A DNA stretch of 64,000 bases from assembly GCF_000026545.1 (NCBI RefSeq), contig NC_011601.1. One strand, written 5' to 3'. Every line of letters begins with the position of its first letter. Position 1 is the first letter of the stretch. The stretch comes from Escherichia coli O127:H6 str. E2348/69 (GTDB lineage: Bacteria; Pseudomonadota; Gammaproteobacteria; Enterobacterales; Enterobacteriaceae). Under the pieces are notes generated by a model, which was not told the origin of the DNA, ran no database searches, and worked only from the letters and a program-made list of their open reading frames with translations. The position numbers and the translations under genes are program-made. Of this stretch, positions 37,262 to 37,286 are shown piece by piece.

Positions 37262-37286
37262 CCCTCCGGTTCGCCGGAGGGTTTTT
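37262..37286 (+). terminator. rho-independent terminator between ygeY and hyuA
   Basis: CCCTCCGG-TTCG-CCGGAGGG hairpin followed by TTTTT, ending 11 bp before hyuA ATG. Confidence 0.7.

Follow-up and report, generated by a model that had tools for sequence, protein, structure and literature searches.

A conserved RNA hairpin with a lineage-specific U-tract at the ygeY–hyuA junction of Escherichia coli: a candidate leaky terminator and decay barrier within the 2,8-dioxopurine operon

The ygeY–hyuA junction of Escherichia coli raises the question of what a hairpin with the shape of an intrinsic terminator does between two co-oriented and closely spaced genes. The window analyzed here, a stretch of 64,000 nucleotides of E. 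coli O127:H6 str. E2348/69 (NC_011601.1), carries the locus in the order ygeV (− strand), ygeW-ygeX-ygeY-hyuA-yqeA (+ strand), and yqeB and yqeC (− strand), and the RefSeq gene identities (ygeW, ygeX/dpaL, ygeY, hyuA, and yqeA/arcC, all on the + strand) agreed with those assigned to the five co-oriented genes beforehand. The genes from ygeW to yqeA code for the lower part of the anaerobic pathway of uric-acid (2,8-dioxopurine) breakdown; this pathway was solved recently, and work is under way to build it into probiotic E. coli against gout. The pathway proceeds in the order SsnA, HyuA, YgeW (with YqeA), YgeY, and YgeX, and the ygeW-yqeA operon is silent in standard media. The first-pass annotation had read the GC-rich stem and the T5 run that follows it either as the boundary between two transcription units, ygeW-ygeX-ygeY and hyuA-yqeA, or as a point of attenuation or differential expression within the cluster. 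The features of the junction are given below.

36033..37244, +: ygeY CDS, the last gene 5′ of the hairpin (RefSeq annotation)
37242–37244, +: ygeY stop codon, TAA
37262–37269, +: hairpin 5′ arm, CCCTCCGG, invariant within Escherichia
37270–37273, +: hairpin loop, TTCG (TTCA or TTTA in other Escherichia)
37274–37281, +: hairpin 3′ arm, CCGGAGGG
37282–37286, +: T5 run (U-tract), equivalent to K-12 NC_000913.3 3010013–3010017; release would be expected here, should termination take place
37287–37290, +: hyuA Shine–Dalgarno (SD) sequence, GGAG, adjoining the T-run and 6 nt (TTTGCT) before the ATG
37297..38682, +: hyuA CDS with its ATG at 37297, the first gene 3′ of the hairpin (RefSeq annotation)

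The coordinates (37262–37286) and anatomy first assigned to the stem and its T5 run were found to be correct, and the distance of 11 bp to the hyuA start was essentially right, as the T-run ends 10 nt and the stem 15 nt before the ATG. Both the stem-loop and the T5 run lie within a spacer of 52 nt, in which the hairpin begins 17 nt past the ygeY stop codon and the 3′ end of the stem is placed 5 nt from the hyuA SD. The stem consists of eight perfect pairs, seven of them G-C, and carries a loop of 4 nt, which is within the range of intrinsic-terminator stem-loops (∼5–14 bp, loop of 3–8 nt). In E. coli, UUUUU follows immediately 3′ of the stem. The T-run is present 3′ of the stem on the + strand only, the stem read on the − strand being followed by GAAUAAG. 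The hairpin and T5 are identical in K-12, and the tested stretch was 100% identical to that of E. coli MCJCHV-1. Alignment of the spacers of relatives showed that GGAG or GAGG is kept at the position of the hyuA SD. An in-frame TTG at 37285 was considered as an alternative hyuA start and was rejected, since the annotated start differs and the TTG is not conserved. The idea of an extra-stable UUCG tetraloop was also discarded, as the closing pair is G-C instead of C-G; together with the variable loop within Escherichia, this indicates that the loop sequence is not a selected feature.

Folding predicted a free energy of −16.6 kcal/mol for the hairpin, which made up 97% of the ensemble (z = −4.36) and was equalled by none of 200 shuffles. 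The hairpin was kept in both the MFE and the centroid structure of a 221-nt context, and a terminator scan ranked it among the best sites in 30–45 kb. The frequency of such structures by chance was evaluated on both strands of the 64-kb window by counting hairpins with at least eight perfect base pairs, at least seven G-C pairs, a loop of 3–8 nt, and at least five T in the next 8 nt. Five loci showed a hairpin of this quality, while the 100 dinucleotide shuffles averaged 0.05. When a strict run of T5 was required, two loci were left in the window, 37262–37286 and 18033–18059 (−), vs. 0 in the shuffles. The latter, with 10–11 bp and T6, is the sole other strict-T-run hairpin in the window and is located between co-oriented ORFs, 18066–19538 (−) upstream and 17245–17937 (−) downstream.

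The ygeY–hyuA hairpin was found to be single-copy, with one match at up to three mismatches in the window and one place per E. coli genome. No Rfam family was matched in a scan of 30–45 kb at E values up to 1. A covariance model matched only the orthologous junction, once per locus, with no further match in 742 kb of flanking DNA. The many copies sharing a consensus that characterize REP/BIME elements or dispersed palindromes were thus not found for this hairpin, and it differs from them in having neither further copies nor family matches.

A HyuA scan with one genome per species yielded 80 loci ranging from Escherichia to Aeromonas, Photobacterium, and some Betaproteobacteria, in nearly all of which ygeY lies directly 5′ of hyuA. 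A strong core hairpin, defined as −12 kcal/mol or better and scored per species at each junction, was present at the ygeY–hyuA junction in 55 of the 62 species with adjacent ygeY and hyuA. The corresponding counts were 51 of 71 species at ygeW–ygeX, 24 of 68 at ygeX–ygeY, and 6 of 70 at hyuA–yqeA. As the fraction differs sharply by junction, the hairpin is not a mere property of any operon spacer. The spacer between hyuA and yqeA of E. coli contains no hairpin, and the other hairpins of the E. coli operon are as follows.

34728–34749, +: ygeW–ygeX hairpin, GGGCCGATC-AGCT-GGTCGGCCC, 9 bp, −18.3 kcal/mol, no U-run
35991–36013, +: ygeX–ygeY hairpin, weaker (−14.0 kcal/mol), followed by A6
39669–39694, strand ‘.’: bidirectional hairpin at the operon end between the convergent yqeA and yqeB, from the terminator scan and folding

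The stems of the ygeY–hyuA hairpin have diverged in sequence, reading CCCTCCGG in E. coli, TCCCCCGG in Citrobacter, CTCCCGTCGC in Raoultella, GCCCCGGCAC in Edwardsiella, GGCCCCGTAC in Morganella, and GGGGCGCC in Mixta. When 38 short spacers were aligned by MAFFT without model fitting, 90% of the cells were paired, as compared with 78% in column shuffles and 39–65% in slid registers. The same alignment contained 34 double-change cells against 9.7 expected, a value reached by none of 500 shuffles. In the model-fitted alignment of 42 sequences, 93.6% of cells were paired and 46 were double-change cells. The orthologous stems contained 16 G·U pairs vs. 3 A·C pairs, and this excess of G·U points to the plus-strand RNA as the selected form. 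On the strength of these comparisons, the plus-strand RNA hairpin at the ygeY–hyuA junction is taken to be real and under selection in more than 50 species.

Conservation was also evident at short range. Among Escherichia species, the differences were confined to the loop (TTCG, TTCA, or TTTA), the 5′ flank, and the length of the T-run, with the stem unchanged. In 4206 of 4997 E. coli genomes, the 58-nt junction was preserved at an identity of at least 99%. Two E. coli allele classes were seen for the 801 nt around it, with 1035 genomes showing at least 99% identity and 4104 (of 5168) showing 90–95%. Comparison of this strain with K-12 over 33531–39662 showed all four operon spacers (57, 57, 52, and 47 nt; 213 nt) to be identical; the coding regions differ by 1.6–5%, and zero spacer differences would arise by chance with P ∼8e-4. 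The most diverged genes in this comparison were ygeY and hyuA, at about 5%, with almost all differences being synonymous.

There is a deviation, however, in the conservation of the U-tract. At least five T in the next 8 nt were found after 10 of the 55 orthologous hairpins, and a T-run of at least four was likewise found after 10. The carriers belong to Escherichia, Hafnia, Morganella, some Serratia, Edwardsiella, and Aeromonas, the full terminator form being present in Escherichia, Hafnia, and Morganella. Across Escherichia the run is T5, T6 (E. whittamii), or T4CT (Escherichia sp. E1V33). In Klebsiella, Raoultella, Kluyvera, Citrobacter, and Atlantibacter, the typical spacer sequence is …GGGAG-UCU-GGAG, and the stem nearly touches the SD. 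The operon end, after yqeA, served as a control; a strong hairpin was present there in 46 of 78 species, and 23 of these 46 passed the same T test. The two sites differed significantly in both U-tract (Fisher p = 0.001) and hairpin presence (p = 1e-4). With a hairpin in 55 of 62 species but a U-tract after only 10 of 55, what is conserved is the hairpin and not efficient termination, and in most lineages the hairpin must be kept for something other than termination. The canonical terminator configuration is, as judged from the orthologous spacers, a lineage-specific state, E. coli included. Covariation in more than 50 species, combined with a mostly absent T-run, moves the conserved role away from termination and onto the hairpin as such. 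The junction offers a clean case of a covarying hairpin that is kept as its U-tract comes and goes, which helps to separate a decay-barrier function from a termination function.

On balance, we lean toward the hairpin of E. coli being a leaky, ribosome-sensitive intrinsic terminator that doubles as a 3′ decay barrier within one operon. In such an arrangement, ygeW-ygeX-ygeY-hyuA-yqeA would be transcribed as a single sigma-54/YgeV-driven operon with the hairpin on the plus-strand transcript. A fraction of the RNA polymerases would release at U5 to give a ygeWXY transcript, and the rest would read through into hyuA-yqeA. A ribosome close behind the polymerase would hinder folding of the hairpin, such that read-through would be favored while ygeY is translated; the hairpin is placed only 17 nt past the ygeY stop, so a closely trailing ribosome can hinder its folding. 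The hairpin would, in addition, block 3′-to-5′ exonucleases, whether the 3′ end arises from termination or from downstream endonuclease cleavage, and would thereby stabilize the ygeWXY segment. The net outcome would be more ygeWXY message than hyuA-yqeA message. In relatives possessing the hairpin without a U-tract, it may serve as a barrier only or terminate very weakly. From the anatomy and the comparison among species, we infer that termination would occur at this site, that it would be partial, that the upstream RNA would be stabilized, and that the expression ratio would follow.

The position of the hairpin can be compared with the tR2 terminator in E. coli, the efficiency of which was near nil a few nucleotides from a stop codon, ranged from 0.12 to 0.8 at 17–18 nt, and reached its maximum only past ∼30 nt, an effect of the trailing ribosome impeding hairpin folding (Li et al., 2016; PMC4824070). 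This distance series places the 17-nt site in the leaky, coupling-sensitive range. The relatives with short spacers showed a median stop-to-hairpin distance of 14 nt (range 8–29). The resemblance lies in the distance and in an efficiency that, for tR2, depends strongly on distance and on ribosome–polymerase coupling; the tR2 series was obtained with a phage terminator in a synthetic reporter, unlike the natural site at ygeY–hyuA. As for the barrier component, conserved 3′ protective hairpins have been shown to produce graded operon stoichiometry in malEFG and menBCE of E. coli, those of menBCE being consecutive (PMC5927463).

An excess of ygeWXY over hyuA-yqeA message would fit the pathway only loosely, in which YgeW and YgeY were used at ten times the amount of HyuA for in vitro reconstitution (bioRxiv 10.1101/2025.04.24.650524), and this agreement is suggestive only. 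The names ygeY, hyuA, ygeW, and yqeA, their b-numbers, and the K-12 coordinates were absent from the supplements of E. coli Term-seq (Adams, 2021), SMRT-Cappable-seq, and TERMITe (PMC7815308, PMC6131387, PMC12207403), and Barba (2013) contained no transcript data. A strong promoter has already been inserted 5′ of ygeW in one strain, and the RNA-seq of this knock-in was presented as a volcano plot without numbers (PMC12507026).

The most credible of the alternatives, although unlikely in itself, is that the hairpin is purely a post-transcriptional decay barrier or processing landmark of the malE-malF type, with termination at U5 negligible in vivo and the T-run of Escherichia an incidental spacer. 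The disparity between hairpin and U-tract counts described above, and the …GGGAG-UCU-GGAG spacers without T-run of Klebsiella, Raoultella, Kluyvera, and Citrobacter, are as expected from such a barrier. The companion hairpins after ygeW and ygeX likewise lack U-runs, protective hairpins are documented (PMC5927463), and termination is expected to be suppressed when a stop codon lies so close to the hairpin (PMC4824070). An incidental T-run, however, is harder to reconcile with the independent recurrence of T-runs of 4–6 in Hafnia, Morganella, and some Serratia and with the retention of T5, T6, or T4CT across Escherichia species; moreover, the E. coli stem with its uninterrupted U5 satisfies every sequence criterion for an intrinsic terminator.

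A more far-reaching proposal, speculative and rather unlikely, would give the hairpin a primary role other than termination. It could act as a ribosome-gated checkpoint 8–17 nt past the ygeY stop, making transcription or stability of hyuA-yqeA conditional on ygeY translation, or as an RBS-adjacent insulator or 5′ stabilizer for hyuA. The U5 of Escherichia would then be a recent add-on, and the three hairpins of the operon would set the stoichiometry of the 2,8-dioxopurine pathway in graded steps.

It is distinctly unlikely that the main effect of the hairpin is on translation, i.e., that it acts on the hyuA RBS as an SD insulator, as a standby site, as a 5′ stabilizer after cleavage, or by SD sequestration through an outer helix. 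In nearly all species with short spacers, 1–8 nt separate the end of the hairpin from the SD, but with spacers of 44–60 nt such proximity is almost unavoidable. The hairpin is still SD-adjacent in Escherichia sp. E1V33 and E. whittamii, in which a ∼170-nt repeat lies between stop codon and hairpin; against this, in the longer spacers of Hafnia and Aeromonas it is near the stop codon, 34–39 nt from the start, and similar conserved hairpins occur after ygeW at 29 nt from the next start codon. The MFE structure of E. coli does contain an outer helix that pairs ACUCU (37247–37251) with GGAGU (37287–37291), the latter including the SD. This helix was rejected as an SD-sequestering element, as it lacks conservation and the data point the other way, SD openness being 0.35 with the natural 5′ flanks vs. 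0.22 with shuffled ones (p = 1e-4). Natural flanks that leave the SD more open fit selection for an accessible RBS, a point in favor of a translational link that at the same time opposes sequestration. The conserved stem itself leaves the SD outside, and a conserved SD-occluding pairing was not found.

An efficient terminator separating two units, with ygeWXY ending at the hairpin and hyuA-yqeA served by a promoter inside the 3′ part of ygeY, appears quite improbable. The canonical anatomy of the E. coli site would suit it, as would the wording ‘ygeWXY operon’ in the literature (PMC10602906); this wording, in turn, probably reflects the predicted terminator, and the hairpin would account for the split of ‘ygeWXY’ from hyuA in databases despite their co-regulation. 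Simple consensus scans, which a real promoter could escape, found no sigma-70-like or sigma-54-like promoter on the + strand of 36000–37296. The 3′ end of ygeY was the most diverged stretch between the E. coli alleles, with 18 and 14 differences per 200 nt, and thus gave no sign of an embedded conserved signal. Furthermore, the SD adjoins the T-run, which leaves no space for an intergenic promoter or its 5′ UTR, and hyuA shares one YgeV iModulon with ygeW, ygeX, and ygeY (PMC10602906, PMC12133099). Taken together, these four observations suggest that hyuA-yqeA depend on read-through. Most relatives, too, lack the U-tract and yet have an equally compact spacer of 44–60 nt. The scan did reveal a candidate promoter at the start of the operon.

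33425–33440, +: sigma-54-type promoter-like site, TGGCAC-N5-TTGT (TGGCACACTTATTGT), consensus scan with one mismatch

This −24/−12 element is located ∼90 nt 5′ of the ygeW start, is the only one near the operon start, and fits the published sigma-54 binding between ygeV and ygeW (PMC8743547). A second one-mismatch match of the sigma-54 type was noticed inside ygeX at 34870.

Classical attenuation fared no better than two transcription units among the possibilities raised at first pass, and it is the third of them, a differential-expression point, that the present data favor. The hairpin resembles classical attenuators and riboswitch platforms in being terminator-shaped and 5′ of the gene that it would regulate, but it is placed between two full-length enzyme genes and not in a 5′ leader. 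Neither a leader peptide nor an aptamer that could serve as sensor was detected, nor an alternative pairing that could serve as antiterminator; no structure competed with the hairpin in the fold of the 221-nt context, and, as stated above, Rfam gave no match.

A chance palindrome, a DNA-level protein-binding site, and a dispersed repeat of the REP/BIME kind are effectively refuted, for although a perfect inverted repeat could in principle be an operator and dispersed repeats do enter the ygeY–hyuA spacer in some Escherichia, only 0.05 such hairpins are expected per shuffled window, pairing is conserved while the stem sequence varies, the G·U excess is specific to RNA and to one strand, and the element occurs once in the window and at one place per E. 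coli genome, with no other model match in the flanking DNA.

The leaky terminator and decay barrier that we favor shares features with two classes of known elements. With intra-operon partial terminators it has in common the GC-rich 8-bp stem, the 4-nt loop, the uninterrupted U5, the position past a stop codon, and the coding-strand orientation, as well as downstream genes (hyuA-yqeA) without a detectable promoter of their own. It differs from them in that the U-tract is short (U5, then GGAG) and also provides the spacing to the hyuA SD, there is no upstream A-tract, the U-tract is usually missing in orthologues, and termination is here predicted. With the protective stem-loops of malE-malF and menBCE (Dar and Sorek, 2018; PMC5927463) it shares a stable structure at a gene boundary of a polycistron that separates operon segments and is conserved in related genera; as in menBCE, several hairpins are consecutive, here after ygeW, ygeX, and ygeY. 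The structures of Dar and Sorek lie mostly within coding regions, unlike the intergenic ygeY–hyuA hairpin. No description of the ygeY–hyuA hairpin was found in Rfam or in the literature searched. It may be regarded as a new and well-supported instance of an ordinary intra-operon terminator or protective stem-loop by its presumed function, which merits an annotation line and will be unsurprising to specialists.

If the hairpin stops or destabilizes part of the message, strains with a promoter knocked in before ygeW would make too much YgeW, YgeX, and YgeY for their amounts of HyuA and YqeA. In that event, removal or tuning of the hairpin would be a simple lever for engineering of the uricolytic operon.

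Several spacers of relatives showed unusual organization. Escherichia sp. E1V33 and E. whittamii have gained ∼170 nt, containing CCCTCTCCCC...GGGGAGAGGGTTAGGGTGAGGGG, between the end of ygeY and the hairpin. This insertion is an unannotated dispersed repeat, of which E. coli genomes have a median of five partial copies at 80–90% identity, and it matched no Rfam family. The ygeY–hyuA spacer of Serratia oryzae, of 363 nt, contains three units related to this repeat; the stretches concerned are L003 3771–3960, L053 3783–3960, and L047 3620–3990 of the extracted loci. Klebsiella indica (L009 3744–4000) is among the few species without a strong hairpin near the SD; of the hairpin, its 257-nt spacer retains just the 3′ half (…TTCGCCGGAGGCGATTCTGGAG), and an insertion appears to have displaced the 5′ arm. 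The spacers of Photobacterium, taken up to a putative hyuA start, are 250–430 nt long (∼3550–4000 in L062, L065, L068, L069, L074, L075, L077, L079, L081, and L082). At the beginning of each there is a composite hairpin, long and conserved (UUCCGUCCCGAGGG...CCCCCUCGGGAUGG), with AUUUUC after it, and some of the spacers contain a second perfect long hairpin.

The far end of the operon also varies within E. coli. The yqeA–yqeB spacer measures 40 nt in this strain (39663–39702), as compared with ∼220 nt in K-12 (L002 14395–14614), and the sequence after the shared terminal hairpin is ATTTTCATTT here vs. AAAGATTGTC in K-12. As both the spacer length and the sequence past the terminal hairpin differ, K-12 has extra sequence at the operon end.
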